Source of the DNA: an uncultured Acidobacteriota bacterium
GTDB taxonomy: Bacteria > Acidobacteriota > Thermoanaerobaculia > Gp7-AA8
Direction of reading: 5' to 3'
DNA length: 64,000 nt
NCBI GenBank assembly: GCA_963758195.1
Contig: CAVWUH010000002.1
Coordinates: 2,061,560 to 2,125,559 of the forward strand
Part shown: piece after piece, positions 2,918 through 63,703 of the stretch
How positions within the stretch are numbered: the first letter of the stretch is position 1
How the letters are laid out: each line of letters opens with the position of its first letter
The notes under the pieces: model-generated
What the model saw: only the letters and a program-made list of their open reading frames with translations
Databases searched by the model: none
Told to the model about the DNA's origin: nothing
Made by a program: the position numbers and the translations under genes

Positions 2918-4471
<1,554 letters not shown>

Positions 4472-10796: not shown

Positions 10797-11566
10797 GTCA
10801 GGACGTTCTCCGCGCGCTGAATGAACTCCTTGGCGAGATTGATGTACGCCTCGCTTCCGCGCGAGCGAATGTCGTAAAGGATAATCGGTTTGCCGAACGA
10901 AGGGGCTTCGCCGAGGCGGACATTGCGGGGAACGACGGTGTTGTAGACCTTCTCCCCGAAGTGACTCCGCACTTCCTCGGCGACTTGCCGCGCCAGGTTC
11001 ATCCGCTCGTCGTACATCGTCAGCGCGATTCCCTCGATCTCGAGCGACGGGTTGAGCAGGTCGCGGACGCGATCGATCGTGTTGACGAGCTGCGCCACGC
11101 CCTCGATCGCGAAGTACTCGCACTGCATGGGCACGAGCACCGAGTTCGCCGCGGTCAGGCCGTTGATCGTGAGCAAGCCCAGCGACGGAGGCGAATCGAT
11201 GAGGACGTAGTCGTATTCTGTGGCGATGTCCTGCAGCGCGCGGCGGAGGTGAAACTCGCGGCCGATGGCGTCGGAGAGCTCTAGTTCGGCGGCAACGAGA
11301 TCGACCGACGACGGCGCGATGTGAAAGTTCGGCAGCTCCGTCGGACGGATGACCTCGCGGATGTTCATCCCATCGGTGAGAACGGGATACATCGACTTCT
11401 CCTCGTGTTTCGGGAACCCGAGACCGGAGGTCGCGTTCGCCTGAGGGTCGAGGTCGATGAGAAGGACGTTCCGCTCGCAGGCCGCCAAAGAGGCGCCGAG
11501 ATTGATGGCGGTCGTCGTTTTACCGACGCCACCCTTCTGATTGGCGAGCGATACGATCTTACTCAT
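10793..11566 (-). CDS. parA: Chromosome partitioning ATPase ParA/Soj (intact)
   Basis: Deviant Walker A KGGVGKTTTAINL and DLDPQANATSGLG. ATGA overlap with parB. Confidence 0.95.
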   Translation of the reverse strand: MSKIVSLANQKGGVGKTTTAINLGASLAACERNVLLIDLDPQANATSGLGFPKHEEKSMYPVLTDGMNIREVIRPTELPNFHIAPSSVDLVAAELELSDAIGREFHLRRALQDIATEYDYVLIDSPPSLGLLTINGLTAANSVLVPMQCEYFAIEGVAQLVNTIDRVRDLLNPSLEIEGIALTMYDERMNLARQVAEEVRSHFGEKVYNTVVPRNVRLGEAPSFGKPIILYDIRSRGSEAYINLAKEFIQRAENVLT

Positions 11567-12150
11567 GTCGTGTGTTCCACGTGGAACGTCAATAGCGCGA
11601 GGTAGTTGGATTTGCCGCGCGGCAATGAAATCGGCTCTTCGCGCGTGAATCCTTCGAGCTCGGGAGTTTCGGGTGACCCCTGGAACAGCGCGATGCGCGC
11701 GCCGTCTTCAAGGTGTTCCTTCAGCGACGGCACCCACTCCTCGGGGTTCCCGACGGCGCGTGAAACGACGAGCGAGAAGCGGAGATCGGCGGGCAGCCGG
11801 GGCAGAAGGCGCGACAATCTATCACCGTAAACCTGCGAGTTCAATCCGCACTCCCGCACCGCATGCTTGAGAAATGCCCATTTCTTCTGGTCCGCCTCCA
11901 CCAGATGAAAGCGCGCACCCCACTGATTCGCGTCCGCTACGATCGCCATCGGAATCGCCGGGAGTCCACCGCCGGAGCCAAAGTCGAGCACTTCTCCCCT
12001 CGGTTTCAGGATCTCCGCCGCCACCACCGCTTCCGCGATGTGCTCGTCGAGATGCTCCCGCGCTTCCGGTCCGATCAGGTTGACCTTGGCGGTCCACTTC
12101 AGAAGCTCGCGCTTATAGAGATCGAGAGACTCAGACAAGCGCTCGCTCAT
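11563..12150 (-). CDS. rsmG: 16S rRNA (guanine527-N7)-methyltransferase RsmG/GidB
   Basis: SAM motif VLDFGSGGGLPAIPMAI. Conserved gene order mnmG-rsmG-parA-parB. The start is taken at the internal ATG (MSERLSESL). Confidence 0.85.
   Translation of the reverse strand: MSERLSESLDLYKRELLKWTAKVNLIGPEAREHLDEHIAEAVVAAEILKPRGEVLDFGSGGGLPAIPMAIVADANQWGARFHLVEADQKKWAFLKHAVRECGLNSQVYGDRLSRLLPRLPADLRFSLVVSRAVGNPEEWVPSLKEHLEDGARIALFQGSPETPELEGFTREEPISLPRGKSNYLALLTFHVEHTT
11573..11588. promoter_or_regulatory. parS centromere-like site
   Basis: TGTTCCACGTGGAACG matches 14 of 16 positions of the parS consensus TGTTNCACGTGAAACA. The inner 14 bp are a perfect palindrome. The site lies in the last codons of rsmG, 7 bp upstream of the parA start. 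Confidence 0.8.
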
Positions 12151-14047
12151 CGCGCTCCCCGCTGAAGCGACGAGTACCACGCCGAAGATGCATCCTCACG
12201 ATCGCCATCGCCGCGGGCGTGACGCCCGGAATCCGCGAAGCCTGTCCAAGGGACACCGGCTGCACGCGCGTCAGCTTCTCCACCATCTCGCGGGAAAGAC
12301 CGGGCAACGCGTACGACATCTCGCGCGGGATCCCGAGGTCTTCGTCCTCGTGCATCTTCGCCGCCTCGCGCTGCTGGCGCTCGATGTAGCCCGAGTAGCG
12401 CAACTGGCTGACAACCCCTTCCCGCTCCTCCTCGCCCAGCATGTGGAACGCTTCGCTGAGATCGGGATGCGGTCCTGCGGCGCCTTCAAGAAGTCGGTCG
12501 ATGTCAACGCTCGGCCGCTCGAGCAGCTTCGCGAACGTTGTCTGCGTCGTGAGCTCGACTCCGCACTCCCGCAGCCAATGAACCGTTTCCCTGTCAGGGC
12601 GCAGCTCGACTCGCGCAACGCCGGTCGCCCGATGCATCCGTGCGACGCGCGATTCGATGCGCCGCCGGCGTTCGTCGTCGAGGACGCCGAGGCGCTCGGC
12701 GATCGGAGAAAGCCGTTCGTAGACGGAATCGCATCCGAGGAGAAGACGATGTTCAGCGCGCGAGGTGAACATCCGATACGGTTCCTCGGTGCCGTGCGTA
12801 ACGAGATCGTCGATCATCACAGCGGTGTAGGCCTGATCGCGCGAGAGAATCAGCGGTTCGGCGTCGCGAACGAACTGCAGCGCGTTGATGCCGGCGAGGA
12901 GTCCCTGAGCAGCGGCTTCCTCGTAGCCCGACGTGCCGTTGATCTGACCCGCGAGATAGAGCCCGTCGACGCCACGCACTTTCAGCGTCGGTTCGAGTTG
13001 CTCCGGATTCACGAAGTCGTACTCGACGGCGTATCCGTAGCGCGCGATCTTCGCGTTCTCGAAACCAGCCAGAGAACGGACCACGCCGTCCTGGACGTCC
13101 GGCGGAAGGGACGTCGAAATGCCGTTCATGTACAGCCACGGATGCTTCAGCCCCTCGGGCTCGACGAAAACCTGGTGGCGTTCCTTCTCCGCGAAACGCA
13201 CCACCTTGTCTTCGATCGAAGGGCAATAGCGCGGACCGGCGGCGTGGATCTGACCCGAGTACATCGGCGCGCGATGGAGATTGGCGCGGATGAGATCGTG
13301 CGCGAAACCGCCCGTGTAGGTCAGCCAGCAAAGGATCTGCGGCTGCTCGATCCGATCGGTGAGGATTGAAAACGGACGCGGATGCTCGTCGCCCGGCGCA
13401 GGCTCGAGGCGGGAAAAGTCGACCGTGGTCTTGTCGATGCGCGGCGGCGTGCCGGTCTTGAGGCGTCCGAGCTGAAGCCCCGCAGCGCGGAGCGAGTCGG
13501 AGATCGTATCGGCCGAAGCTTCGCCGAAGCGGCCGCCGGCCGTCTTCACCTCACCGGAGTGCATGAGCGCGCGGAGAAACGTGCCGGTGGTCATGACCAC
13601 AGCGCGCGACTCGAGCCGCCGGCCGTCCTGCAGCACGACCCCGCGAATCGTCTGCCCTTCCTGAATCAGCGACGCAACCGAACCTTCGAGGATGGTGAGA
13701 TTGGGCTCCGCATCGAGGATCGATTGCACGGCGCTGGCGTAGAGATCGCGATCGCACTGCGCGCGAGGACCCTGAACCGCGGGACCTTTCGAGCGATTGA
13801 GGATCTTGAACTGGATCCCGGCGCGGTCCGTGGCCTCCCCCATCAAACCGGCGAGCGCGTCGATCTCTTTGACGAGGTTTCCTTTGGCCAGGCCGCCGAT
13901 CGCCGGGTTGCAGGACATCCGGCCGATCGCGGCGCGCTCCATCGTGACCATCGCCACGCGAACACCGCCGCGCGCGGCGACACGGGCCGCTTCAGCGCCG
14001 GCGTGGCCGCCGCCGATCACGATGATGTCGTAGTCGACCGTCTGCAT
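12131..14047 (-). CDS. mnmG: tRNA uridine 5-carboxymethylaminomethyl modification enzyme MnmG/GidA (intact)
   Basis: FAD motif DIIVIGGGHAGAEAA and GQINGTSGYEEAAAQGL. 638 aa with no breaks. Confidence 0.95.
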   Translation of the reverse strand: MQTVDYDIIVIGGGHAGAEAARVAARGGVRVAMVTMERAAIGRMSCNPAIGGLAKGNLVKEIDALAGLMGEATDRAGIQFKILNRSKGPAVQGPRAQCDRDLYASAVQSILDAEPNLTILEGSVASLIQEGQTIRGVVLQDGRRLESRAVVMTTGTFLRALMHSGEVKTAGGRFGEASADTISDSLRAAGLQLGRLKTGTPPRIDKTTVDFSRLEPAPGDEHPRPFSILTDRIEQPQILCWLTYTGGFAHDLIRANLHRAPMYSGQIHAAGPRYCPSIEDKVVRFAEKERHQVFVEPEGLKHPWLYMNGISTSLPPDVQDGVVRSLAGFENAKIARYGYAVEYDFVNPEQLEPTLKVRGVDGLYLAGQINGTSGYEEAAAQGLLAGINALQFVRDAEPLILSRDQAYTAVMIDDLVTHGTEEPYRMFTSRAEHRLLLGCDSVYERLSPIAERLGVLDDERRRRIESRVARMHRATGVARVELRPDRETVHWLRECGVELTTQTTFAKLLERPSVDIDRLLEGAAGPHPDLSEAFHMLGEEEREGVVSQLRYSGYIERQQREAAKMHEDEDLGIPREMSYALPGLSREMVEKLTRVQPVSLGQASRIPGVTPAAMAIVRMHLRRGTRRFSGERDERALV

Positions 14048-51863: not shown

Positions 51864-52335
51864 TGCGGCCCCGTTTGAAAGGTACGTTGTGTTCTCGAAG
51901 TGTCGCGGATGCAAGTTCGACCAGGTGATCGTGCTTGAACTGGTACCAGGCCTCGGTTCGACCGACCGATTCGAGAACGGCGCGAAACGCGCGGAAAGCG
52001 CCTCGCCCCCGAATGGCATTCTGGAGATTTGACGAGAGTGGCTCTCGCTGCTGGTCTGCGAATGCCTCCATGAAGGTCCACTCGTGAATCTCAAATTTGT
52101 CGGGCATGGCGATCCACTTACCGTCTCGTTCGGCGATTTCGCGAAGTTTCGCGACGTCTTCGGGTGACCATTCCCACTCGAAGCCATCTGTCTCGTCGCC
52201 CTCCTCGATCACCCCCATGTCGGAATTCAGCACGGTGAGGAACTCGCCTGTCTCACGGCTGACGTATACACGCGCTTCTTCCGGTAAGCAGTCAAGTTCC
52301 TCGGCAAGAGCGTCGATCGGAACCGGTAAGGTCAT
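51859..52335 (-). CDS. UPF0158-family protein (last cassette)
   Basis: YVSRETGEFLTV, WIAMPDKFEIHEWTFMEAF and NAIRGRGAFRAFRAVLE...WYQF fit the UPF0158 pattern. The family assignment is from memory. Confidence 0.6.
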   Translation of the reverse strand: MTLPVPIDALAEELDCLPEEARVYVSRETGEFLTVLNSDMGVIEEGDETDGFEWEWSPEDVAKLREIAERDGKWIAMPDKFEIHEWTFMEAFADQQREPLSSNLQNAIRGRGAFRAFRAVLESVGRTEAWYQFKHDHLVELASATLREHNVPFKRGRS

Positions 52336-52345
52336 GGCGACAAGC

Positions 52346-52444
52346 GGCTAACGTCTCCAGCTGACCGGCTTCGGCCCACGCGGAGAACGTGAAAGTAAGC
52401 GTATCAGACGGCGGGCCGAAGTCCGGTCCAACGTTGAGTTAGGT
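52346..52444 (-). repeat. Integron attC site
   Basis: GGCTAAC...GACCGGCTTCGGCCC // GGGCCGAAG-T-CCGGTC...GTTAGGT. The GTTAGGT core is duplicated at 52449-52455. Confidence 0.8.
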
Positions 52445-52496
52445 AGGAGTTAGGTGGCCTGTGTGCCAGCGCCGAGAACTTCGGCCGGCGGAGATG

Positions 52497-53008
52497 CTAT
52501 TGGATGGGCAAGCCAGGCTGAAAGACGTTCTCGAAGTTCTGCTGCGCCGGTTCCAACAACTCGCTTTGGAATTGCGATCCACTCCCATCCGGGCGGATAA
52601 GCAGGAAGAACTCAGCATTCTCTGTTGCACGCGTGAAGTCACACCACGGGAATCGTGCGTCGACGTGGTTGCACCATGTGCGCGCCCTAGTGTCGTCGAG
52701 TTCAATAAAGTGTGTCTCGAGTGAGTGCTTGTCCGCGGCCCGAAGCCTTGCCACTCGTGCTTTCGCGTGCGCCTGAGATCCGAATATAAACGCGACGATC
52801 GCTCCGGCGGCAATCACTGTCGTGACGGCAGCGGTAGTGGCGCCAGCACATAGGCAGCAATCACAACGGCGAAGCAGACGCCGAACGAGATGACGCCGCC
52901 ACGATCTGGCGGAAGACTCTCTCTGATGAGTGCCTGACAGCCTTTGAAGGACTCCCCAGGAAGGGGGCGAATCTCGAATCGCACGAAACTTGACAATGTG
53001 ATAGCCAC
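52497..53008 (-). CDS. Cassette ORF, membrane-anchored hypothetical, 1 frame break near 52830-52870
   Basis: The N-terminal part with its TM helix (VISFGVCFAVVIAAYVLAPL) is in ORF 52814-53008. The continuation (VTTVIAAGAIVAFIFGSQAHAKARV...NVFQPGLPIQ) is in ORF 52497-53147. Confidence 0.5.
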
Positions 53009-53038
53009 CCAACGTCGGGTGCAGCGGCCTAGTTGGGC
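53007..53038 (-). repeat. Truncated attC (core plus one arm)
   Basis: ACCCAAC-GTCGGGTGCAGCGGCCTA-GTTGGGC resembles the right arm of the attC at 53570-53671 fused directly to a left core. Confidence 0.5.
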
Positions 53039-53067
53039 CGCCGTTTCTAGCGCGTTCCAAGGGAGCG

Positions 53068-53550
53068 CTACTTTCTGCGAGGCGGAACTTGAATGATGAG
53101 CGTCCGTTCGTGATTACGCCCGGAAGTTGAGAAATCCGATGCGGCAACTACTTTGAACTCGACAGGCGCCAGCCCTCGGCCGTGCTCCAGGCGCGCGTAG
53201 AACCCGGCAGGAGCACCACCGTGCATGAACCATTCGCTCGGAATGTCCCCGACTCGAAACCCAGCGCGGTCGAAGGCCCCGCGTGGTTCGATATTCGTCA
53301 CTCCAAAGAACCTAATGTCTCGACCATCGTAGTTGCCGGTCTTCACCATTCCCGTGCTGAAACCGAGGTCACTTTGCAGATCAGGCGCGGCAAACCGAAG
53401 CCAGTACCATTCGTCAATCGCGCGATCGTAGACACTGAAGGCGAGCAAGAAGAGCAGGAGTATCAGCGTGCCGCCGACATACACCAACCTGCGAATGTGC
53501 GCGGTGAAGGAAGTCCCGAGAACGTCCATCTTCGCATCTACCTTCGTCAT
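53068..53550 (-). CDS. Cassette ORF, membrane-anchored hypothetical (possible PDZ-like domain)
   Basis: N-terminal TM helix LVYVGGTLILLLFLLAFSV. The segment GVTNIEPRGAFDRAGFRVGDI is PDZ-like. Confidence 0.55.
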   Translation of the reverse strand: MTKVDAKMDVLGTSFTAHIRRLVYVGGTLILLLFLLAFSVYDRAIDEWYWLRFAAPDLQSDLGFSTGMVKTGNYDGRDIRFFGVTNIEPRGAFDRAGFRVGDIPSEWFMHGGAPAGFYARLEHGRGLAPVEFKVVAASDFSTSGRNHERTLIIQVPPRRK

Positions 53551-53569
53551 TTCGCGTAACCCCCGGTCG

Positions 53570-53671
53570 GCCTAACGGCCTGCCGCTTAGCCGCAGTAAC
53601 CGCACGCGAAAGAGTACCAAGCAACGACACTCGCGGTGCGGTTGACGTCGGCTGCAGCGGCCGAGTTAGGC
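53570..53671 (-). repeat. Integron attC site
   Basis: GCCTAAC...GTTAGGC. The TAA stop of the upstream cassette ORF (53666-53668) lies inside the core. Confidence 0.8.
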
Positions 53672-54151
53672 GTCTGCCCCCGATGACCACCAGTCGATGA
53701 CCGATTCTGGCGAAACACCGTTGGCAATCAAAGCTGAATTGATTTGTCGTCCCTGCGCCTCTGGAAACTCGCTGCCCAAATAGACGCCTCCGAAGGCCTC
53801 TCGAAATCTGGCATTCGAGGAGATCTCGTCTAGCACGCGGTCAAGAAATTCGACACCGCGATACCACATGAATGTCTCAAGACATCCGGCGCCGATCATT
53901 CCCAGATCAAGCTCGTGGCACCGCGCGATCGATGCGCGCAGAATCTGCCAGCAGGCACCTGGATCAGTCTGGATAAGGTCATCGACCTCTTCGCACGCGT
54001 CGCCGTGAGGATTCTCAACTGAGCGTCTCTTCATTTCCTCGAGCATCACCTGGGCTTCTTCGCGTGTGCTCGGTAATAGACCAGATGGGCGAATGTGCTC
54101 AAGATATCCGAGGTATCCGCTGACAATTTTCTCTTGCTCATCGCGTGTCAT
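53666..54151 (-). CDS. Cassette ORF, hypothetical (161 aa)
   Basis: Clean ORF bounded by attC sites. No recognisable family. Confidence 0.6.
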   Translation of the reverse strand: MTRDEQEKIVSGYLGYLEHIRPSGLLPSTREEAQVMLEEMKRRSVENPHGDACEEVDDLIQTDPGACWQILRASIARCHELDLGMIGAGCLETFMWYRGVEFLDRVLDEISSNARFREAFGGVYLGSEFPEAQGRQINSALIANGVSPESVIDWWSSGADA

Positions 54152-55301
54152 TCGGACGCCTAAACGTCCCCAGCTGAGCCGCTTCGGGCCACGCCATGAA
54201 CGTTGTAAGTAAGCGTATCAGACGCTGGGCCGAAGTCGGCTCCAGCGTCGAGTTGGGCATCGAGTGTGTGATGCCGACGTTGATGCGGGAGGGTATCCTG
54301 AACCGATGGCGCTTAAGGCTGCTGCTGGAGAGGACTTCGAATCGAAGACGCTTCGCGAGCGATTCGCCGTTCACGCAAGTGATGATGTGCTGATCCTGCG
54401 TGCCGAACCGCTGTAAGCTGTCCAGGAACTTTTCTACAGCTTTGTTAAATGCCTCCGGGTTCTCGCGCGCCGAGCCGTGACCGGCTCCCGGGATGCTCAC
54501 TCGGGGGGCGTTCGGGAGCAGCCGCGCGAGCTCGCCGTTCACGAATTTGTGTAGGGGGATCGTGTTCTCGCCGCTGACAATTAGAACCGGCATGCGCAGC
54601 CGCCGGACCTTACTTTTAGGCACGTTCGGAAACGGGTCCCTCGATAAGGTAGCCGCCTTGAAAAAGCGAGAGTTCTGCATCGCCAAGGCACGGCCCTCAG
54701 GTGGTAGACGGTCGAACCTGCCCAACCCGCCGAATCCGTCCACCAGAATCCTCATCGCGCGCTGGTCATCTCCCGTCTTGAACGCTGCCGCGGCGGGTTT
54801 CCAGATGGAGGCCATAAACTCCTGATAAAGAACTCTGCCTTTCGCGTCATCCTTTGCCCAGCGGTGTACGGGCGGCTCAGCCAACACCAGGCTGCGGACC
54901 ATCTCGGGGTGTTGGATGGCCAGCACCAGCGCCGCCGACGCTCCGGCGGAGGAGCCCACGAGGTGTACGCGCCCGAGGTCGAGGTGGCGGATAAAAGCAG
55001 CGAGGTCGTCGGCGTCCGAATAAGCTGAACGGTAGCTATCGGTCAGTGGGTTTTGATTCGGGTAGTTGTAGCGGCGGCTGTAAGAGATAACCCGGTAGCG
55101 CCGGGAGAACGCCTCGGTCTGCGCACCCCACGAGCGATAATCCCCCTGTCCACCGTGCAGCAGAATGAGCGGCTCGCCTCGGCCCCGTTCGACGTAATGA
55201 AGCTCGACGCCGTTAACCCGAACTCTCACCAAGCCGTCGCTCTGGCCAGCGGCCGGTCGGCAAAGCATCATCACCAGGAAGAAGAACGTAAGTCTAGCCA
55301 T
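54138..55301 (-). CDS. Cassette ORF: secreted alpha/beta hydrolase; the annotated 3' end reads through the attC
   Basis: Signal peptide, oxyanion-region LLHGGQGD and nucleophile elbow VGSSAGA. The hydrolase fold ends near AVEKFLDSL (about 54400). The remaining 95 or so codons run through the attC without a stop. Confidence 0.7.
   Translation of the reverse strand: MARLTFFFLVMMLCRPAAGQSDGLVRVRVNGVELHYVERGRGEPLILLHGGQGDYRSWGAQTEAFSRRYRVISYSRRYNYPNQNPLTDSYRSAYSDADDLAAFIRHLDLGRVHLVGSSAGASAALVLAIQHPEMVRSLVLAEPPVHRWAKDDAKGRVLYQEFMASIWKPAAAAFKTGDDQRAMRILVDGFGGLGRFDRLPPEGRALAMQNSRFFKAATLSRDPFPNVPKSKVRRLRMPVLIVSGENTIPLHKFVNGELARLLPNAPRVSIPGAGHGSARENPEAFNKAVEKFLDSLQRFGTQDQHIITCVNGESLAKRLRFEVLSSSSLKRHRFRIPSRINVGITHSMPNSTLEPTSAQRLIRLLTTFMAWPEAAQLGTFRRPNDTR
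54158..54258 (-). repeat. Integron attC site (conserved subfamily)
   Basis: GCCTAAAC...AGCTGAGCCGCTTCGGGCC...GTAAGCGTATCAGACGCTGGGCCGAAG-T-CGGCTCCAGCG...GTTGGGC. Confidence 0.8.
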
Positions 55302-55351
55302 CCGCGTCGTCGCCTCTTATCAGCCAAACCTACAGGCCTTCGATTCAGCGA

Positions 55352-55447
55352 GCCTAACATCCCCAGCTGAGCCGCTTCGGCCCACGCGAGACATGTGCAA
55401 GTAAGCGTATCAGACGCTGGGAAGTCGGCTCCAGCGCCGAGTTGGAC
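55352..55447 (-). repeat. Integron attC site (conserved subfamily, 3-nt deletion in one arm)
   Basis: GCCTAAC...AGCTGAGCCGCTTCGGCCC...GTAAGCGTATCAGACGCTGGGAAGTCGGCTCCAGCG...GTTGGAC. Confidence 0.8.
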
Positions 55448-55578
55448 GGCGGTTCGCGCGACGCTACGCGGACTCTCTCTGCTCGCGGCCTGCCCTTGAC
55501 GGCAACGGCAAAGCCCAAAAGCACGAAGGCGCAAACTCGATCCGCATTACTGCGGTTAGCTGCCAAGTCCTCTCACTC

Positions 55579-55908
55579 TCATTGGAGATATCGACGCCAA
55601 AAACTCCAGAACCCAAATGGGTTTCCCTTGAATCGTCGCGCCCACGCAGACCGTTCTTCTTCGGGAAGGATTTCGTTGGCAACGTATCCGAAAACGAAAT
55701 AAAAGGGGACGAGCATGCCAGCGTACAGAATGAACACGCCGAATCCGATTGTCCACAGCCATTTCGGTGCAGATGGCCACAACCACATCGCCACCATGCC
55801 GACGATGAACGCGATCGGAAACAGAGCACACGTGAGAGCCCCGAGGCCAAGTAACTTCCGCTCAACCTGCGTGAGATCCGTTCGCCGCACAGTGTCTTCG
55901 TCGTCCAA
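55579..55908 (-). CDS. Cassette ORF, small 3-TM membrane protein
   Basis: LGLGALTCALFPIAFIVGMVAMWLW, WLWTIGFGVFILYAGMLVPFYFVFGYV. The start codon (TTG or GTG) is uncertain and lies in or near the attC core. Confidence 0.55.
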   Translation of the reverse strand: MDDEDTVRRTDLTQVERKLLGLGALTCALFPIAFIVGMVAMWLWPSAPKWLWTIGFGVFILYAGMLVPFYFVFGYVANEILPEEERSAWARRFKGNPFGFWSFWRRYLQ

Positions 55909-56021
55909 CGTCCTCCGGTTCAGCGGCGCGGTGCCACACTAGTGTGAGCGGCAGGACCAGAGCAGGTTACTCTGAACATGGCAGCGAACGGCACCGCGTC
56001 CGCTGCAACCGCGAGTTAGGT
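55903..56021 (-). repeat. Integron attC site (119 bp variant)
   Basis: GTCCAAC...CCGGTTCAGCGGCGCGGTGCC // GGCACCGCG-T-CCGCTGCAACCG...GTTAGGT. The TAA stop of ORF 56016-56435 lies in the core. Confidence 0.8.
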
Positions 56022-56435
56022 GCCGCGCTTGGAGCCGAAGGCATCCCAGTACGCCGTGGCGGTTACATCGATTTCTTCAACCGAGGTCGGCGTCCCATCT
56101 GCCCTAGCGACGCGAAGTCCCCCGTACTGAATGTCAAACTGACCGTTTGAGCAGATGACGCGCACACCGGTCGAGATGCTCGTCGCTGAAAGGATCTCTG
56201 GCTTGAGCTCGGCGAGGACGTTCACGTCGGTGGTGCGTCGATCGTCATTCCAGTTCAGGTACTCGAACTTTTCGCTGCTCACGAGCGTCAGATCGATCGC
56301 ATCGCAGGGAGGGTTCATGATCTGAGTGAGGTAGCCGATCTCAACGCGCAAGGTCAGATCGCCCGGAACGACGCCTCGGACACTTGCAATCCCACCATCG
56401 TGCAGGAGATTCCAGATCTCTTCCGGGTTATCCAT
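56016..56435 (-). CDS. Cassette ORF, hypothetical (139 aa)
   Basis: Clean ORF from an ATG 10 nt below the attC at 56445-56543 to a stop inside the next attC core. No recognisable family. Confidence 0.6.
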   Translation of the reverse strand: MDNPEEIWNLLHDGGIASVRGVVPGDLTLRVEIGYLTQIMNPPCDAIDLTLVSSEKFEYLNWNDDRRTTDVNVLAELKPEILSATSISTGVRVICSNGQFDIQYGGLRVARADGTPTSVEEIDVTATAYWDAFGSKRGT

Positions 56436-56444
56436 GGCTCAGGC

Positions 56445-56543
56445 GGTTAACGTTTCAAGCTGAGCCGCTTCGGCCCACGCGAGGAACGTGAAGGTGAGCG
56501 TATCAGACGCTGGGCCGAATTCGGCTCCAGCGAAAAGTTAGGT
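56445..56543 (-). repeat. Integron attC site (conserved subfamily)
   Basis: GGTTAAC...AGCTGAGCCGCTTCGGCCC...GTGAGCGTATCAGACGCTGGGCCGAAT-T-CGGCTCCAGCG...GTTAGGT. Confidence 0.8.
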
Positions 56544-56604
56544 GCCGTTCGCCCCGTGGTTCGGTCCGGAGTTCAACATGCGTTCGATTTCATCGTCGCC
56601 GTTC

Positions 56605-56928
56605 TCAACGCGTTTGCGGGCGCTTGAGAAACCGCAACAGCAGCGAACGTGAACAACAGCAGAACGTGGCGATGCTCACGAAATACAACGCTACTGATGC
56701 GGCTGGCGCGTAGTAGAGCCAAGCCTCCGGAGTCATGATCGCTCCGACGATCCTGTCACGGGTGTCTTTCGCGACCCCAGCGGCCGAGAGGAAGAACGCG
56801 ATCCACCCCGTGCCGAAATACACGAAAACTCCATACGCGACGAACCCTACGCCGGCAGCTACCACCGTGCCGATGCCGAGCCACGCCACGACAGCGAATG
56901 AGGCGCGTTTGTTGAAGGTTCGCAGCAC
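56605..56928 (-). CDS. Cassette ORF, small multi-TM membrane protein
   Basis: FAVVAWLGIGTVVAAGVGFVAYGVFVYFGTGWIAFFLSAAGV and YYAPAASVALYFVSIATFCCC. Confidence 0.55.
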   Translation of the reverse strand: MLRTFNKRASFAVVAWLGIGTVVAAGVGFVAYGVFVYFGTGWIAFFLSAAGVAKDTRDRIVGAIMTPEAWLYYAPAASVALYFVSIATFCCCSRSLLLRFLKRPQTR

Positions 56929-56968
56929 GTTCCCGATCTCAGCCCGTCGTTCCGCACATGATTCAGGT

Positions 56969-57067
56969 ACCTAACGGTCCGCGGTTCACCGGCTTCGGCC
57001 CACGCGGAACGTGTGCAAGTAGTCTAGCAGCGAGCGGGTCGAAGTCCGGTGCAACCGCTAGTTCGGC
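56969..57067 (-). repeat. Integron attC site
   Basis: ACCTAAC...CGCGGTTCACCGGCTTCGGCCC // GGGTCGAAG-T-CCGGTGCAACCGCTA-GTTCGGC. The TAG stop of ORF 57058-57534 abuts the core. Confidence 0.8.
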
Positions 57068-57534
57068 GGCGTGAGGACTACTCGCACACTCTGCGGGAGG
57101 TCGTTCCACTCAAGCACCCTGCATTCGCAATACTGATTCTGCAGGTCGACAAGGGCCTCCGAGGGGACGCCTGAAACTGGGATGGGATCGCCAGTAGCTT
57201 TGGCGCGAATGACACGGCCCGACACCGGCCACACAACAACCTCGACGAGCCGGCCGGGAAACAGGCCTTCAGTCGTCGCGTTTAGGAAGTGCCAAGAGTC
57301 GATCGAGACGTACTCGGAATCATCCGTCTCAATGAACCACGCGTTCGGGCAGCACGGCGGACCGCTGCAGGTGATTTGGCTCCACACGCGGCGAACTGAA
57401 AAGGACATCGTTACAACGGTGCCGGTTCTCGCCTCGGCGCGGGCGTTTCTCCGCGCACGTAGCTGGAGCAACGACAGATCGCGATACTTCTCTGCGAGTT
57501 CCTCGGCCGTCGCTGCTCGTTCAGTGTGTGTCAT
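57058..57534 (-). CDS. Cassette ORF B of a two-gene cassette, Cys-rich hypothetical (158 aa)
   Basis: Overlaps ORF 57521-57784 by 14 nt, with no attC between them. No recognisable family. Confidence 0.6.
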   Translation of the reverse strand: MTHTERAATAEELAEKYRDLSLLQLRARRNARAEARTGTVVTMSFSVRRVWSQITCSGPPCCPNAWFIETDDSEYVSIDSWHFLNATTEGLFPGRLVEVVVWPVSGRVIRAKATGDPIPVSGVPSEALVDLQNQYCECRVLEWNDLPQSVRVVLTPPN

Positions 57535-57784
57535 TCAGCCGCCGAACGTTCCAAAGAATCCGGCGACCCGCAGCCACGGCGGCGACAGATACCGACAGGC
57601 TCACAATCGAGATGACCGCAAGGAGCTGTCTCGAAATAGCAGGTTCGAAGCGCACGCCCTCGCAGCCTCGACTCGTCCACCTGCCGCCAGCGTCCAAGCA
57701 TCTGTCTTCCTGCCAGAAACGAACCTGCGGGATCGCGAGTGCGACAGCGAACACGACGACGAGGGTGATGATTCGGACTCTCAT
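57521..57784 (-). CDS. Cassette ORF A of a two-gene cassette, 2-TM small membrane protein (87 aa)
   Basis: TM helices IITLVVVFAVALAI and LLAVISIVSLSVSVAAVAA. The ATG is 7 nt below the attC core at 57791. Confidence 0.55.
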   Translation of the reverse strand: MRVRIITLVVVFAVALAIPQVRFWQEDRCLDAGGRWTSRGCEGVRFEPAISRQLLAVISIVSLSVSVAAVAAGRRILWNVRRLNDTH

Positions 57785-57790
57785 TCAGCC

Positions 57791-57891
57791 GTCCAACGGC
57801 CTGCGGTTCAGCGGCTTCGTGCCGCGCGCAAACCGTGAAACCGAGAGTAGCAGACGGCGGCACGAAGTCCGCTGCAACCGCTCAGTTAGAC
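57791..57891 (-). repeat. Integron attC site
   Basis: GTCCAAC...CTGCGGTTCAGCGGCTTCGTGCCGC // GCGGCACGAAG-T-CCGCTGCAACCGCTCA-GTTAGAC. Confidence 0.8.
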
Positions 57892-58034
57892 GGCGACGGG
57901 ATACCCGATCTCTTCGAGATCTCTTCTCAACATGTGAACCTGGCGAAGGCGATACCCCGCGCTGCACCCCGGGAGGGGTTAGACGTCCGAGTGAGTGTGC
58001 TGCCCCAGCAAGACCGGGCGACTACCCACGGTCT

Positions 58035-58259
58035 CTATGAGGTGACCCTCTCCCATGAGTCGCGGATTGTCTGGAGATCCTTGGCGGATGATATGTAGAA
58101 CTCGATGTGGCCGCACGAGGTGCAAGCGTATCTGTCCGGAGCGCTGGTCGCACCAAAAATCAGGCTTGGTTTCAGTGTGATCTTCTCGCTCTGCAGGGGG
58201 TGCCCGGCCTGACGATAGACATTGGTGCTATTGCAGCGGGAACATGTGCCGTTCCTCAT
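58035..58259 (-). CDS. Cassette ORF, zinc-ribbon protein (74 aa)
   Basis: MRNGTCSRCNSTNVY...YACTSCGHIEFY has two CxxC pairs. It resembles Zn-ribbon nucleic-acid-binding (DUF2082-like) proteins. The family assignment is from memory. Confidence 0.6.
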   Translation of the reverse strand: MRNGTCSRCNSTNVYRQAGHPLQSEKITLKPSLIFGATSAPDRYACTSCGHIEFYISSAKDLQTIRDSWERVTS

Positions 58260-58301
58260 GTGGCCTCCTTGATGTAGACGTGTTGAACGTGACGGGTCGC
58301 C

Positions 58302-58400
58302 GCCTAAGGTCCTACGCTTCAGCCGCGTAGCCCGCACGCGAGATCGTAGCACCACGATGAAAAAGCAGCGGGCTACGTCGGCTGCAAGCGTGAGTTAGGT
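58302..58400 (-). repeat. Integron attC site
   Basis: GCCTAAG...CTACGCTTCAGCCGCGTAGCCCGC // GCGGGCTACG-T-CGGCTGCAAGCGTGA-GTTAGGT. Confidence 0.8.
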
Positions 58401-58435
58401 GGCGGCCAGCAGGACGGCGAAGTCTCTTGCACACT

Positions 58436-58792
58436 CTACTTAATGCGGTGGTAGCGAAAGGTATCGCCGCTCTCCTCAACGACAACAAGCACATCGGCGC
58501 CTAGAGTGAACGTGTCCACGCACGCGCACTTCTTGCCATCCAAGAAGAGGCGGTTGCCCTCAACGCGGTACGTTCCGCGATCACTACCCCAGAGGAGAAA
58601 GCTTCGAAAGCGCAGAACGAACGTCCCGTCGGCGTTAAGAGTGAGTTTAGTGATGCTCGGTCCAATTTGACTCATCTGACTGCCAGTCGTCCACCGGCCG
58701 ACGATTGGCGACGTGGCCTGCGAAGGAGGCGGCGTGATAGACGAGCAGGCCGTCAAGAGAATCAGGAAGCCGACCGTCAGAGTCATTCGCAT
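58436..58792 (-). CDS. Cassette ORF, lipoprotein (118 aa)
   Basis: MRMTLTVGFLILLTAC contains a lipobox LTAC. The mature part looks like a small beta-barrel or lipocalin-like domain. Confidence 0.65.
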   Translation of the reverse strand: MRMTLTVGFLILLTACSSITPPPSQATSPIVGRWTTGSQMSQIGPSITKLTLNADGTFVLRFRSFLLWGSDRGTYRVEGNRLFLDGKKCACVDTFTLGADVLVVVEESGDTFRYHRIK

Positions 58793-58798
58793 CTCGCC

Positions 58799-58836
58799 AC
58801 CTAACGGGCTACGTCGGCTGCACGCGTGGGTTGGAC
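58799..58836 (-). repeat. Truncated attC (core plus one arm)
   Basis: ACCTAAC-GGGCTACGTCGGCTGCACGCGTGG-GTTGGAC equals the right arm of the attC at 58302-58400 joined directly to a left core. Confidence 0.55.
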
Positions 58837-59660
58837 GGCGCCGCGGCCCAGGACAGGAACAAAGGGCGATGAATCTCAAGGATTGGGAGATCGGCCAAGT
58901 CATCGAGAAATCCTGCGGACCTAAGGGCAGCACGGGACTCATCTTCGTGCTTTACCGTGTCGAGCCACCAAGCGTGGTAAACGAGCAGGACCACCTCGTC
59001 GATGGAGAGGTGTGCCCGAAGTAGACGCCGGTAGTTCTCGCGGTCAGATCCGGATGCAGATTCAACAAACGACACAAGAAAGAGAGCGTTGCCGTTCAAT
59101 GGAGTCGTAAATTCTTTCCACGATTTGTGGAAATCATCGTAACCATCGGTCAACGCCTCTATGAGATCATACGGTCTGTCGCCTTGCGCCTCCCACTGGT
59201 GAGCGGTGTCGTCCGCATTCCTGACACCTGAGACGAGATATGACGCAATCTTCTGCAGTGCGCTTCGACCATAGAGGTCGTGAGAAGCGGGAGTTACGTT
59301 TCGATTGAAGAATTGAATGTCGGTCTGACGAACCTGGATTCCATCGATTATTCGCACCCGCAAGTCCAATAGTGTGAAAAACGTTCGTTCAAAGTTCTGA
59401 CGTCGTAACTCTTCCGAGTTCGCTCGAATCTCGACCTCCTGCCGGTCAAGTTGCTCGCGCTGCGCCAGGTATGCCACGTACACGAACAGGACACCTGACG
59501 CTGTCCACAGCGGTCCGGCGGTGCCGGCGACGAATGTCGCAAATTCAACAAGGTGTGAAGCGCCAAACTGAAACGTCGCCCAGGGCGACGCGGCACCGCC
59601 AGCGACAGCGAGAGTGCCCGCTGCAGCCGAGATGATCTGCTGCTTCGTCTTGTGACGCAT
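58809..59660 (-). CDS. Cassette ORF, putative abortive-infection (putAbiC-like) membrane protein
   Basis: Two N-terminal TM helices, then YLAQREQLDRQEVEIRANSEELRRQNFERTFFTLLDLRVRII, the pattern I associate with Pfam putAbiC. This is from memory and has not been searched. The ATG is at 59660. Confidence 0.6.
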   Translation of the reverse strand: MRHKTKQQIISAAAGTLAVAGGAASPWATFQFGASHLVEFATFVAGTAGPLWTASGVLFVYVAYLAQREQLDRQEVEIRANSEELRRQNFERTFFTLLDLRVRIIDGIQVRQTDIQFFNRNVTPASHDLYGRSALQKIASYLVSGVRNADDTAHQWEAQGDRPYDLIEALTDGYDDFHKSWKEFTTPLNGNALFLVSFVESASGSDRENYRRLLRAHLSIDEVVLLVYHAWWLDTVKHEDESRAALRSAGFLDDLADLPILEIHRPLFLSWAAAPSNPRVQPT

Positions 59661-59696
59661 TGAATGCTTCGTGCGATGGCTACTCGATGTAGCGAG

Positions 59697-59790
59697 GTCC
59701 AACGGTCGCCGTTCAGTCGCGGCAGCCGCTTACAAAAGAGTAGCATTTACGACGACCGCGAGGCGGGTGCCGGTAACGGCCGAGTTCTAC
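59697..59790 (-). repeat. Integron attC site (divergent, weaker pairing)
   Basis: GTCCAAC...CGGTCGCCGTTCAG...CCGGTAACGGCCGA-GTTCTAC. Confidence 0.55.
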
Positions 59791-60004
59791 GGCTAGTTCG
59801 AAATCAACCAATCTTTTGCTCCACGTCGTCAACGATTCGGAGAACGAAAGCACGCAATTGGTCGGCCGCGATCGTCGCCTGCCACGTGACTGTACCGAAC
59901 TCCGTATATTGGACACGCGTAACTCTGAACTTGCCGCTCAAGCGCCGCAAGTTTTGAATGAAACGCTTGTTTACGCCCGTTCATCGAAGAGCGTCTTTCC
60001 GTCG

Positions 60005-60104
60005 CCCTAACGTCTCTAGCTAAGCCGCTTCGGCCCACGCGAAGAACGTGAAGGTAAGCGTATCAGACCCTGGGCCGAAGTCGGCTTCAGCGGCCAAGCT
60101 AGGC
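60005..60104 (-). repeat. Integron attC site (conserved subfamily), first in the array
   Basis: CCCTAAC...AGCTAAGCCGCTTCGGCCC...GTAAGCGTATCAGACCCTGGGCCGAAG-T-CGGCTTCAGCG...GCTAGGC. Confidence 0.8.
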
Positions 60105-60123
60105 GCAGCCGCAGGCGATCCGG

Positions 60124-60483: not shown

Positions 60484-60585
60484 CGGTTCATACTATTCGA
60501 TGGCCGAACGCAGTGGCAGACCATGGGGACGCCGAGATCTGGCGCCTGGGCGATAGGCTGTGTGTGGCCAGGTGCAAAACATCCT

Positions 60586-61059
60586 TCATCGCCGGTCCCC
60601 TGTTATGAGCGTGTCCATGGGACTACGAACGCCGCGGCTGCCGGTCTGTTGCAGGACGTGCGTATAGATCATGGTCGTCTTGACGTCGGCGTGGCCGAGG
60701 AGCTCCTGGATTGTGCGGATGTCGTAGCCGTCTTCCAGGAGGTGCGTGGCGAAGGAGTGACGCAAGGTGTGGCAGCCGGCATTTTTCTCGATGCGCGCGG
60801 CTTGGACGGCAGCCTTTGCCGCCCGTTGTACTGCAGATTCCTCGAGGTGATGTCTTCGCTGGACTCCGCTCCGCGGGTCGATGGAAGTTCGGGTGGCGGG
60901 AAAGACGTACTGTCACGCGATTTCGCGTCCGGCGCCTGGATATTTGCGTGCGAGCGCGTCGCAGGGCCAGACGTCGCCGACACGGTGAGCGACGTCCCGT
61001 TTGTGCTCGGTCGCCGAAACCTCTTGAAGCTAAGGCAACGTGTCGAAGCCGTGCGACGT
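60586..61059 (-). pseudogene. intI: Integron integrase remnant (C-terminal ~155 codons, two in-frame stops)
   Basis: Hand translation gives ...[148 protein letters not shown]. It contains the IntI-specific ALARKYP..W.WQYVFP...DPRSG..RRHH insertion and the catalytic HxLRH...Y box. The stops are TGA at 60915-60913 (replacing Trp) and TAG at 61032-61030. No N-terminal half is present in any frame. Confidence 0.85.
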
Positions 61060-61079
61060 TGACACGCTATCGGTTAACG

Positions 61080-61544
61080 TCACGATCGGCTTCCTGCAGC
61101 GTTCCAACGGACGACAAATTCAGAAGGCTGAGGCTCTCCAAGTTGCGGTCGCACAACGCGTCGTGCCGTCGGCTGCATCAGTGCGACCTTGAACCCATCG
61201 GCACGTTGTTCAATGACCTTTACGGTTGGCGTGCGGCCGGGTGTCGGCTCAATTCGCAACATCAGATGCGGTGGTCTTGCGAATGGAGTTTCGTAAAAGA
61301 TTTCGCGCGCATCCTCAGCGGCGTATAGGGGAAAGAAGATAACTCCTTCCGTCCGCGTGGGAACGTTATCGCTGGAAATAGGCGGTTGCGCGATGGCTGC
61401 TCCATGCTCTATGGACACGCGCCGCCGGCGGCGTCTTCGGACGGAGTTGGCAATTCCTGAGGTGACCAGTGTGAGGATGGAAACACCAATGCCGGAGAAG
61501 ATCCACGAACCATTTGCTCGCAGCCAGTCAAGCAACGACGCCAT
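61080..61544 (-). CDS. Membrane-anchored hypothetical protein (possible H-type-lectin-like domain)
   Basis: N-terminal TM helix WIFSGIGVSILTLVTSGI plus an R6 run. GVIFFPLY...FARPPHLMLRIE...VKVIEQRADGFKVAL is reminiscent of H_lectin domains, but the match is weak. Confidence 0.5.
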   Translation of the reverse strand: MASLLDWLRANGSWIFSGIGVSILTLVTSGIANSVRRRRRRRVSIEHGAAIAQPPISSDNVPTRTEGVIFFPLYAAEDAREIFYETPFARPPHLMLRIEPTPGRTPTVKVIEQRADGFKVALMQPTARRVVRPQLGEPQPSEFVVRWNAAGSRS

Positions 61545-61577: not shown

Positions 61578-62570
61578 CTACTTCGCCGCTCGTTCTTCAA
61601 TCACACGCGCCAAATGAAACCGCAACGGCTCCAATAGCGTGTAATGCGACGTAATGCGGCTCTGTCGTTCGTTCTCATCGCGGAAGAGATCGCGCATCGT
61701 CGTCGCGCGCTCGTCGTACCAGGTTTTGGAGACTTCACCGCGGGCTCGCTTTTCGTCGAGGACGAGCATGATGTGGTTGCGGTCGATGATCTCGGGGTGG
61801 TGGTTGACGCCGAGGAAACGGGGCATGGTGCCGGCGGGGTCGCGGGCGAGCTCGATCATGGTGAGGGCGGTGCTTCCCTCGGCTTCGAAGGCGATGGGCT
61901 GGCTCTTGCCGGGTTGGTCGAGGATGAGGTCGAAGAGGCGGTTGTCGATGACGCGGAAGTGCTGGTGGTCGGGGAGCTCGCGGGCGAATTGCGAGAACCA
62001 GGGATGCTGCATGGCTTCGCGGGAGAGGCGGTTGGTGGGCATGCCGCTGCTCTTCTCTTCGCGAAGCTCGACGTGGGCGACGCCGCTCCATCGGCAGACG
62101 AGGCCGAAGGAGTGGCAGATGGCGAGCATGGCCGCGCTGGGATGGGCGAGGATGTCGTCGAAGAGATGGAAGAGCGGCGCTTCCCACTCGGTGGTCTCGT
62201 CGACGCCCTGACTCCATTCGTGCTTGCCGTCGTTGAGGCGCGGGTCGAGATGACCGGGACCGCCGGTGCCGAGGTAGAGCTGGAAGCGGCCGTTCGGCGA
62301 CTCGGGGATGGCGTTGCGGCGGCGGACGTCGTAGGAGAGCACGCGCACGCGCGCGTCGATGGCATCGAGCTCGTCGCGGAGGGATTCCGCTCCCTCCTGC
62401 ACGGCATGCACGAGCGAGTCATGCCCGACGTTGGGCCAGAAGTGATTCATGTCCAGCAGCGCGACGTCGATGCAGTCGGTGCGCGGCGGCGGTACGGAGT
62501 CCTCGACGCGGAGGAACTCGAAGACTTCGGTTTGAGTAGCGTTCATGAAGGTTCTGTTTGCGAGTGGCAA
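61578..62570 (-). CDS. Class I glutamine-amidotransferase-like protein
   Basis: Nucleophile elbow LAICHSFG and the His region FLGVNHHPE. The start may be the internal ATG (MNATQTEV) at 62546. Confidence 0.7.
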   Translation of the reverse strand: MPLANRTFMNATQTEVFEFLRVEDSVPPPRTDCIDVALLDMNHFWPNVGHDSLVHAVQEGAESLRDELDAIDARVRVLSYDVRRRNAIPESPNGRFQLYLGTGGPGHLDPRLNDGKHEWSQGVDETTEWEAPLFHLFDDILAHPSAAMLAICHSFGLVCRWSGVAHVELREEKSSGMPTNRLSREAMQHPWFSQFARELPDHQHFRVIDNRLFDLILDQPGKSQPIAFEAEGSTALTMIELARDPAGTMPRFLGVNHHPEIIDRNHIMLVLDEKRARGEVSKTWYDERATTMRDLFRDENERQSRITSHYTLLEPLRFHLARVIEERAAK

Positions 62571-62573
62571 GAG

Positions 62574-63703
62574 CTACACCACTCCGTACTCCGTCTCGGC
62601 GACGATCTCGTCGACGACATCCTTGAGATCGTTCCGCCGCGCGTAGGCGGCGAGCTGGCGATCGGCCCCGGTGCCGCGGCGCATGATCTCACGCGCGTAA
62701 TAGACCTCTTTGCGCGAGCCGAGCTCGTCGACGACGTCGTCCACGAAACTCGAGAAGCTCGTCGAGCAATTCTCCGAAGGGAACTTCCTCGCGGCGGCCG
62801 AAGTCGATGAGCTTGCCGCCGATGCCGAAGCGCGCCGCGCGCGATTTGTTCTCGTTGAGGAGCGCGCGGCGATAGAGGCGCCAGCCCATGTTCTGTTTGT
62901 AGATGCGATAGAGCTTGACGGTGATCGCCTGGAAGAGCGCGGCGAAGCAGATGGTCTCGTCGATGCGCATCGGCACGTCGCAGATGCGGTACTCGAGCGT
63001 GGGGAAGAAGGGATGCGGACGCACGTCCCACCAGATCTTCTTGGGGTTGTCGATGCAATGCGTGCGGACGAGCGTGTCGACGTATTCGTCGTAGTCGCGC
63101 GAGGGTGTTGAAATGATCGGGGATGCCGGTGCGCGGGAAGCGCTCGAATACTTTCGCGCGATAGCTCTTCCAGCCGGTGTTCTGTCCGCACCAGAAGGGC
63201 GAGTTCACGGAGAGGGCGAAGATGTGCGGCAGGAAGTAGCGCACGGCGTTCATGATTTCGATCCGAACGTGTCGGGGTCTTCGACGGCGACGTGGACGTG
63301 CAGTCCGAAGATCAGGTTGGCGCGCGCGAGCATCTGCAGCTCGTACACGATCTGGTCGTAGCGTTCGTTGGACGTAATGGGCACTTGCGCCCAGTGCGAG
63401 ATCGGATGCGTGCCGGCGGCGGCGATGCGCAGTCCGTTCTCGCGCGTCAGACGTGATGATCTCGCGCCGCAGTCTGGTGATCTCACGCCGCGCCTCGGCG
63501 ATGTTCTGGCAGATGGGCGTGCCGACTTCGATCACGGGATCGTGCATTTCCCGTTTGATCTCGTCCTTCAGCCGCTTCTCTCCCTCGGTGAACATCTCCT
63601 GGATGTGCGACTTGAGCAGGCGCGTCTCCGGGTCGACGACCTGGAACTCCTCTTCGATGCCGAGCGTGAAAGATGGAACAGGCATGGGGGAAGGATATGC
63701 CAT
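62574..63703 (-). CDS. Carboxylate-amine ligase (glutamate-cysteine ligase family 2, YbdK-like), at least 4 frame breaks
   Basis: FTLGIEEEFQVVD, FGLHVHVAV, LSVNSPFW, TLEYRICDVP and a C-terminal EIVAETEYGVV are distributed over all three reverse frames (ORFs 62543-63703, 63250-63486, 62689-63024, 62574-63191). Confidence 0.8.

Follow-up and report, generated by a model that had tools for sequence, protein, structure and literature searches.

The window analysed here is a stretch of 64,000 nucleotides from an uncultured Acidobacteriota bacterium (GenBank assembly GCA_963758195.1, contig CAVWUH010000002.1, positions 2,061,560 to 2,125,559 of the forward strand; the contig is called C2 below). 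Reading along the minus strand, two core genes are followed by an open reading frame (ORF), the remnant of an integron integrase gene (intI) and an array of gene cassettes with their attC sites (Table 1). The labels 'YbdK-like' and 'amidotransferase-like' for the core genes, at 62543-63703 and 61578-62570, are guesses. The ORF at 61080-61544, which abuts the truncated end of the remnant, has no counterpart at this locus in any of ten relatives.

Table 1. Features of the integron locus, in coordinates of the window.
Feature	Position	Strand	Basis or remark
Conserved core gene, 330 aa	61578..62570	-	Single copy in all 35 genus genomes; no Pfam match
ORF abutting the truncation point, 154 aa	61080..61544	-	No Pfam match
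Palindromic GGTTAAC	61072..61078		Minus reading GTTAACC equals the R' core of attC 56443-56547
intI pseudogene, whole	60586..61053	-	Matches to TIGR02249, same-genus IntI and VchIntIA
Short 5' piece, HGFDTLP*LQEVSAT	61009..61053	-	Corresponds to HVLDDPLPWLDEIVRAT of relatives, about residues 105-120
TAG for the Trp of LPWL	61030..61032	-	TGG in relatives
Junction of in-frame internal deletion, ~90 codons	61006..61011	-	Five intact IntI aligned; DNA compared with L013 and L009
C-terminal part	60586..61008	-	IntI-specific segment and LLGH...IYTHV; HxxR/His/Tyr kept
TGA for the Trp of A-W-Q-Y (VchIntIA W219)	60913..60915	-	TGG in relatives
Single surviving copy of motif CAGCCTATCG	60551..60560	-	26 nt after the intI stop
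GTTCGGC, possible degenerate attI crossover core	60503..60509	-	Position and resemblance (relatives GTTAGGC/GTTAGCC)
First ORF after intI, first cassette, 119 aa	60124..60483	-	No Pfam match
First attC	59994..60107	-	nhmmer E=6.9e-31; hairpin with bulged base in 5' arm
Cassette array, at least 7 strong attC plus weaker or partial ones	52334..60107	-	ORFs on the minus strand

The minus-strand translation from 61077 to 60586 reads LTDSVSTSHGFDTLP*LQEVSATEHKRDVAHRVGDVWPCDALARKYPGAGREIA*QYVFP...TTMIYTHV...GDRR*, where the last asterisk is the native stop codon of intI (60588-60586). Among the NCBIfam models, TIGR02249 gave the best match (E=2.6e-58, 197.8 bits, profile positions 181-315 of 315) and covered the IntI-only segment ALARKYPGAGREIA.QYVFP..., with the XerA, XerD and XerC models far behind at 83-88 bits (E of 1e-24 or weaker). 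The score lies below the TIGR02249 cut-off of 265 bits for the sole reason that 180 of the 315 profile positions are missing. The best solved structure for the remnant is VchIntIA (PDB 2A3V), matched over residues 188-319 with E=2.9e-41, followed by XerA and XerD at about 1e-12. This alignment spans the IntI-specific extra segment, in which a 36-residue stretch of the remnant corresponds to VchIntIA residues 205-240; the segment also aligns with all intact relatives compared. Pfam reports the generic Phage_integrase domain alone, as might be expected if the gene had been a XerC/D-type or phage-type tyrosine recombinase and no IntI. Such an origin is virtually excluded by the distance between 197.8 bits and the 88 bits or less of the Xer models across a match that includes the IntI-only segment, by the corresponding gap between VchIntIA and the two Xer structures, and by the attC array that adjoins the remnant. 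The first-pass annotation had read this stretch as a decayed integron integrase that keeps the IntI-specific extra segment and the catalytic C-terminus, and the profile and structure alignments bear it out in both respects; at the level of sequence, the identity of 60586-61053 as the remnant of an intI gene is confirmed. It is a pseudogene of the IntI family and no functional member of it.

The nearest proteins are intact IntI of the same genus, from genomes G012 (locus L013, 82% amino acid identity) and G002 (L009, 81%), and all other IntI are at most 70% identical to the remnant. In a tree built from the C-terminal columns, the remnant is the sister of the G012 protein, with an end branch of 0.17 versus 0.06 for its sister, i.e., about three times as long. 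The named neighbours of this IntI belong to Thermoanaerobaculia, Holophagales and other Acidobacteriota metagenome-assembled genomes.

Homology to intI starts at the CAC codon 61053-61051, encoding the His of the YRHVL motif. The approximately 105 codons before it are absent, and no intI homology above that of shuffled controls was found upstream of 61054. The 5' truncation reported in the first-pass annotation is therefore real, whereas the limit proposed there, about the LP*LQE position, has to be moved, since homology starts seven codons further up. The short piece that contains LP*LQE is rare enough in its sequence to be taken as real homology and not as a chance resemblance: across the 12.7 million codon positions that a six-frame reading of the genome yields, LP[W*]L[DQEGN][DEGN] has 7 matches, and the longer D.LP[W*]L.E[IVL] has just one, in the remnant itself.

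A second deletion is internal and in frame. LQEVSAT ends at 61009 and EHKRDV starts at 61008, so that the EHKRDVAHRVGDVW following the short 5' piece corresponds to LHDRDLARGFGDVW of relatives, about 90 residues further on. The missing codons, about 270 nt, are present in all five intact IntI that were aligned, and with them the gene has lost box I, which holds the first catalytic Arg, and the GKGxKDR hairpin, which holds the Lys. The C-terminal part downstream aligns with L009 without gaps over 414 nt, at 77% nucleotide identity. Both nonsense codons that had been pointed out earlier are present, and the TAG, like the TGA, stands at a conserved Trp. The complete R-K-H-R-H/W-Y catalytic set is thus not found in one frame, which holds two in-frame stops and lacks the N-terminal domain. 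With the Arg, the Lys and the N-terminal domain missing, read-through of the stops would not yield an active enzyme.

The genome assembly consists of 4 contigs with a total of 6.35 Mb and an estimated completeness of 86%, and it contains errors. The rpoC gene (C2 1,316,869-1,320,936) is spread over three reading frames by frameshifts only, rpoB is open over 1454 codons, and several genes of the window are frameshifted, e.g., the core gene at 62543-63703. Indel errors probably account for both the completeness score and the frameshifted window genes. With assembly errors so evident in rpoC and in the window, the lesions of intI might be an artefact of assembly or base calling, and the gene intact in the organism; we consider this very unlikely. 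The known errors are indels, rpoB is open, and no genuine in-frame nonsense codon in conserved context was found in about 10,000 core-gene codons aligned with relatives, where all five '*' characters are at alignment edges or in out-of-frame stretches. Moreover, neither a clean in-frame loss of about 270 nt nor the absence of the first 105 or so codons is a base-calling error, and degradation extends to the attI-like region and the first attC (see below). Since this assembly errs by indels rather than by nonsense substitutions, both stops look real, and we regard the TAG and the TGA as probably genuine lesions. The first-pass annotation had taken the same view of these substitutions, and the pattern of errors in core genes lends it support.

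Relative to the consensus of G012 and G002, the remnant has changed at 9 first, 6 second and 30 third codon positions, with 18 GC-to-AT transitions versus 6 in the opposite direction. Since the changes are mostly at third positions, purifying selection acted on the gene for most of its divergence, and its death was comparatively recent.

The attC sites were detected by nhmmer with a profile built from the genome's own attC sites, which works for close relatives only. Seven strong attC were found within 8 kb, between 52340 and 60107, and a repeat search added weaker and partial ones. In the minus-strand reading, each site consists of RYYYAAC, a stem-loop and GTTRRRY, and its 5' arm contains two extra bases located 7 nt apart, GCT[G]GAGCCG[A]CTTCGG, which appear as a constant bulge in DNA folds. 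Extrahelical bases are reportedly located in the R''-L'' arm of attC. The cassette ORFs are likewise on the minus strand, with an attC just after each stop codon. Given the extra bases in the 5' arm and the direction of the cassette ORFs, the attC top strand is the minus strand, a call based on bulge asymmetry and ORF direction and not on the IntegronFinder model. Judged by these two signs, intI and the cassettes are co-oriented and the array is at the 3' end of intI, as the first-pass annotation had proposed. A home-made attC hairpin detector (RYYYAAC...GTTRRRY plus folding) was abandoned as insensitive and unspecific, since it returned 1 and later 5 matches in the array versus 9 in the control.

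The first attC, nearest to intI, has the R'' core CCTAGC, whereas all others have CYTAAC or CCCAAC; this single-base change should disable the site. The attC sites adjoin intI, as in an integron, and with at least two attC, no functional intI within 4 kb and a pseudogene within 10 kb, the array is classified as a CALIN with a neighbouring intI pseudogene. Further clusters or single copies of the same attC family that have no integrase nearby (CALINs) were found on C2 at 3.279-3.284, 4.730-4.733, 2.861-2.865, 4.065 and 0.946 Mb, on contig C1 at 1.1997-1.2003 and 0.793 Mb, and on the 6.4-kb contig C3 at 3889-3994. The latter contig may be an unplaced piece of an array.

Co-orientation is no peculiarity of the wrecked gene: intact intI in this genus, and in other Acidobacteriota, natively have the same layout. 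Detectable attC are located on the same strand as the intact intI in G012, G002, G027 (two copies) and G025, and in G012, G027 and G025 they are beyond its 3' end. In most of the remaining genus genomes, intI points with its 3' end to a contig end, as would be expected if a repeat array came next. For named loci, short direct repeats were roughly counted in both flanks of intI, a measure that is informative only at high counts. The Acidobacteriota loci have 0 repeats on the 5' side versus 16 on the 3' side (L030), 2 versus 15 (L098) and 0 versus 4 (L036), and a Rhodocyclaceae and a Chloroflexia locus have their arrays on the 5' side. It should be noted that in G002 (L023, G002:C17) two further attC were found 5' of intI, at 11679-11784 and 13392-13490, so that this intact gene is flanked by attC at either end, every one of them on the gene's strand, as though it lay inside an array.

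An intI on the attC top strand with the array at its 3' end is the arrangement known as inverted integrase, and it is seen both at the remnant and in the intact relatives. The first-pass annotation had described co-orientation as known only from the inverted group, e.g., Treponema denticola. The inverted layout is indeed found here, but a single Treponema-like clade does not follow from it: the arrangement is known and paraphyletic (Cury et al. 2016, PMC4889954), and layout therefore does not equal clade membership.

In G012 and G002, the intI stop is directly followed on its 3' side by a shared region of about 150-200 nt in which CAGCCTATCG/CGATAGGCTG motifs recur. The region terminates with AGTTAGCC or AGTTAGGC and has its core, GTTAGCC or GTTAGGC, some 150-170 nt past the stop (L022 of G012, 11390-11560; L023 of G002, 9550-9390, minus strand). 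The first cassette ORF of G002 starts 9 nt past this region, which by its position is a putative attI. The 10-mer CAGCCTATCG is confined, among 141 loci, to the window, G002 with three copies, G012 with one, and a single stray match. The remnant's own 3' flank keeps a single copy, and the GTTCGGC further downstream may be what is left of the attI core. With the attI-like region reduced to one motif and the core of the first attC mutated, the whole platform, and not intI alone, seems to have decayed.

Immediately past the 330-aa core gene, synteny with relatives breaks off. In three of these (G023, G049 and G048), this gene is followed by a block of about 100 kb and then by TetR-HlyD-ABC genes. 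The block (C2 2,008,2xx to 2,105,818, the latter being window position 44,259) is inverted in the studied genome. Relative to the three genomes, the inversion measures about 115 kb, from C2 ~2,008,240 to 2,123,100, and window positions 1-61,577 form its right part. A non-syntenic island of 17.3 kb (window 44.3-61.6 kb), composed of a few genes, the array, the intI remnant and ORF 61080-61544, is located at one inversion junction, and a small gene pair, presumably DUF4160/DUF2442-like, at the other. The inverted block lies within a flat region around the minimum of the cumulative GC skew. No inverted repeats were found between the two junctions, and flank synteny revealed no insertion site shared with the closest intI-bearing relatives. 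A dispersed REP/MITE-like repeat of 40-95 nt is present at C2 2,007,623-2,007,700; over 100 copies of it are distributed on C1 and C2, frequently paired in inverted orientation at a distance of about 110 nt.

A second intI fragment, encoding residues 1-107, was found on contig C1 at 790328-790582 of the plus strand (L002 1483-1737, L021 10328-10582). It has a TGA at the conserved Trp of AYV.WIRR (AYVM*IRRY) and immediately follows rex, at a place that varies among five relatives, with a co-oriented attC 2 kb later. This fragment ends in CGT CAC GTC CT and the window fragment begins with CAC GGC TTC, i.e., both break at the same codon with an overlap of 8-9 nt. We lean towards the reading that the fragments derive from two different intI copies, with the C1 copy either older or of a different lineage; genomes commonly have more than one intI (Nemergut 2008, PMC2426708).

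Alternatively, the two fragments could be the halves of one intI that was split by a reciprocal rearrangement at the His-Val-Leu codons, a less probable scenario that nevertheless deserves weight. A shared break codon with 8-9 nt of overlap is what an exchange across a short shared core would leave, the island of the window is located at a junction of the ~115-kb inversion, and an AU test over 85 columns does not reject the grouping of the C1 fragment with G012 and G002 (p=0.255). The two halves differ, however. G012 and G002 share 94% identity over the part covered by the N-terminal fragment, which matches them at 73-74% and lacks their shared derived residues, whereas the C-terminal fragment is 82% identical to the same two proteins, which are there 86% identical to each other. 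Changes in the N-terminal fragment are evenly distributed over the codon positions (16, 12, 16), in contrast to those in the C-terminal one (9, 6, 30), and similar decay would be expected of halves that died at the same time. A single exchange also fails to account for the flanks, since on C1 the core synteny resumes 9 kb downstream, whereas the array of the window is followed by a different core block.

The GGTTAAC that the first-pass annotation had compared to a core site is present, and with a minus reading that exactly matches the R' core of an attC in the array, it may be such a site. The truncation could then have been made by IntI itself, acting at a secondary site in its own gene and leaving GTTAACC (61078-61072) as the crossover scar. 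This core is 19 nt from the start of homology, a GTTGAGC (GTTRRRY) is found 26 nt past the break of the C1 fragment, and in one relative the break codons read CAC GTT CTG, fitting GWTMW, the secondary-site consensus for IntI. We nevertheless consider self-cutting improbable. By our estimate, such a 7-mer would occur in a stretch of this kind by chance with a probability of about 0.1-0.2, the core is outside the homology boundary and not at it, and ORF 61080-61544 has no attC.

The nonsense codons of the two fragments follow a pattern as well. Three of the four Trp codons kept in them, the third at about C1:790418-790420, are now stops, and no other codon is. The probability that all three stops fall at Trp is 0.002-0.02 for transition/transversion weights of 1-4 and, by estimate, roughly 0.06 if GC-to-AT transitions alone count; no consistent sequence context was observed around the three codons. 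Together with the coincident codon of two apparently independent remnants and the position of one of them at a junction of the presumably origin-spanning inversion, this pattern could suggest that the His-Val-Leu of YRHVL is a recurrent breakpoint of intI, and that the genes were killed in a self-inflicted or targeted way, e.g., through a secondary site of IntI, and not by random decay. We regard this idea as improbable as well, and treat the coincident breakpoints and the Trp-to-stop pattern as small curiosities. A candidate 5'-truncated intI from G020, considered as a further case of such a hot spot, proved to be a frameshifted, near-complete gene and offers no support.

A search of the 4 contigs for an intact intI that could act in trans yielded no match over the TIGR02249 cut-off, and the remaining recombinase matches of the genome are of Xer or phage type. 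An intact copy could still be located in unassembled DNA, the assembly being 86% complete, but as the contigs number only 4 and frameshifts are many, errors are the likelier cause of the low score. Taken together, the locus is very probably the fossil platform of a sedentary chromosomal integron in the inverted layout, with an integrase dead from multiple lesions and a frozen array.

We infer both the order of the lesions and the immobility of the array, which may be pictured as follows. The ancestral platform would have worked as in the intact relatives, where intI reads toward the putative attI and cassettes are presumably inserted at the GTTAGGC just downstream. The integrase would then have been killed by independent lesions, namely the loss of about 105 codons, the internal deletion of about 90 codons and the two Trp-to-stop transitions, while the attI-like region was reduced to one motif and the first attC core was mutated. 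With no enzyme of its own, the putative attI mostly gone and no other IntI in the assembly, the cassettes would be fixed in place. Site-specific recombination would no longer add, remove or reorder cassettes in the array of about 8 kb, which would change only by mutation, deletion or homologous recombination between attC sites, behaving as a frozen CALIN with a neighbouring intI pseudogene.

This is an ordinary case of a well-documented kind of decay, and inverted integrons are also well documented. Roughly one in three intI genes in genomes is a pseudogene (Nemergut 2008, PMC2426708), 15 of 279 CALINs were found to have an intI pseudogene beside them (Cury et al. 2016, PMC4889954), and integrons have already been recorded in Acidobacteriota (PMC8618304). 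Within the genus, intact and broken intI are both frequent. The latter include a gene whose N and C parts are on opposite strands, 3 kb apart (G012:C123, L143), one with an internal deletion (approximately profile positions 147-205) and frameshifts (G002:C54, L144), and one with frameshifts only (G020:C113, L142). The remnant leaves the knowledge of integrons unchanged. What it provides is a documented integron death in Acidobacteriota, in which intI, the putative attI and the first attC decayed together and the array was left, in a co-oriented layout that is native to the whole genus; for annotation purposes, the array is to be treated as a CALIN with an intI pseudogene and not as an active integron.

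Several known systems can be compared with this locus. With VchIntIA (IntI4 of Vibrio cholerae, 2A3V), the C-terminal 132 residues of the remnant align end to end, and the HxxR, His and Tyr residues and the IntI-specific segment are present in both, but the remnant lacks the N-terminal domain, the first Arg and the Lys, and has a stop in place of W219. The intI2 gene of class 2 integrons is likewise an integron integrase silenced by a nonsense codon, an internal stop (as cited in Nemergut 2008, PMC2426708), but its single stop is suppressible, whereas the remnant also has two large deletions. The inverted integrons (Cury et al. 2016) share an intI that reads toward the array, and an array and attI-like region at the 3' end of intI; the present case differs in its Acidobacteriota-type host and in that its nearest IntI are from the same genus, in a compared set without Treponema IntI. 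The closest counterparts are the 'pseudo-integrons' (Nemergut 2008, PMC2426708) and the CALINs with an intI pseudogene (Cury et al. 2016, PMC4889954), in which an intI killed by stops and deletions is located beside an attC array, and from which the locus described here differs in nothing of substance.
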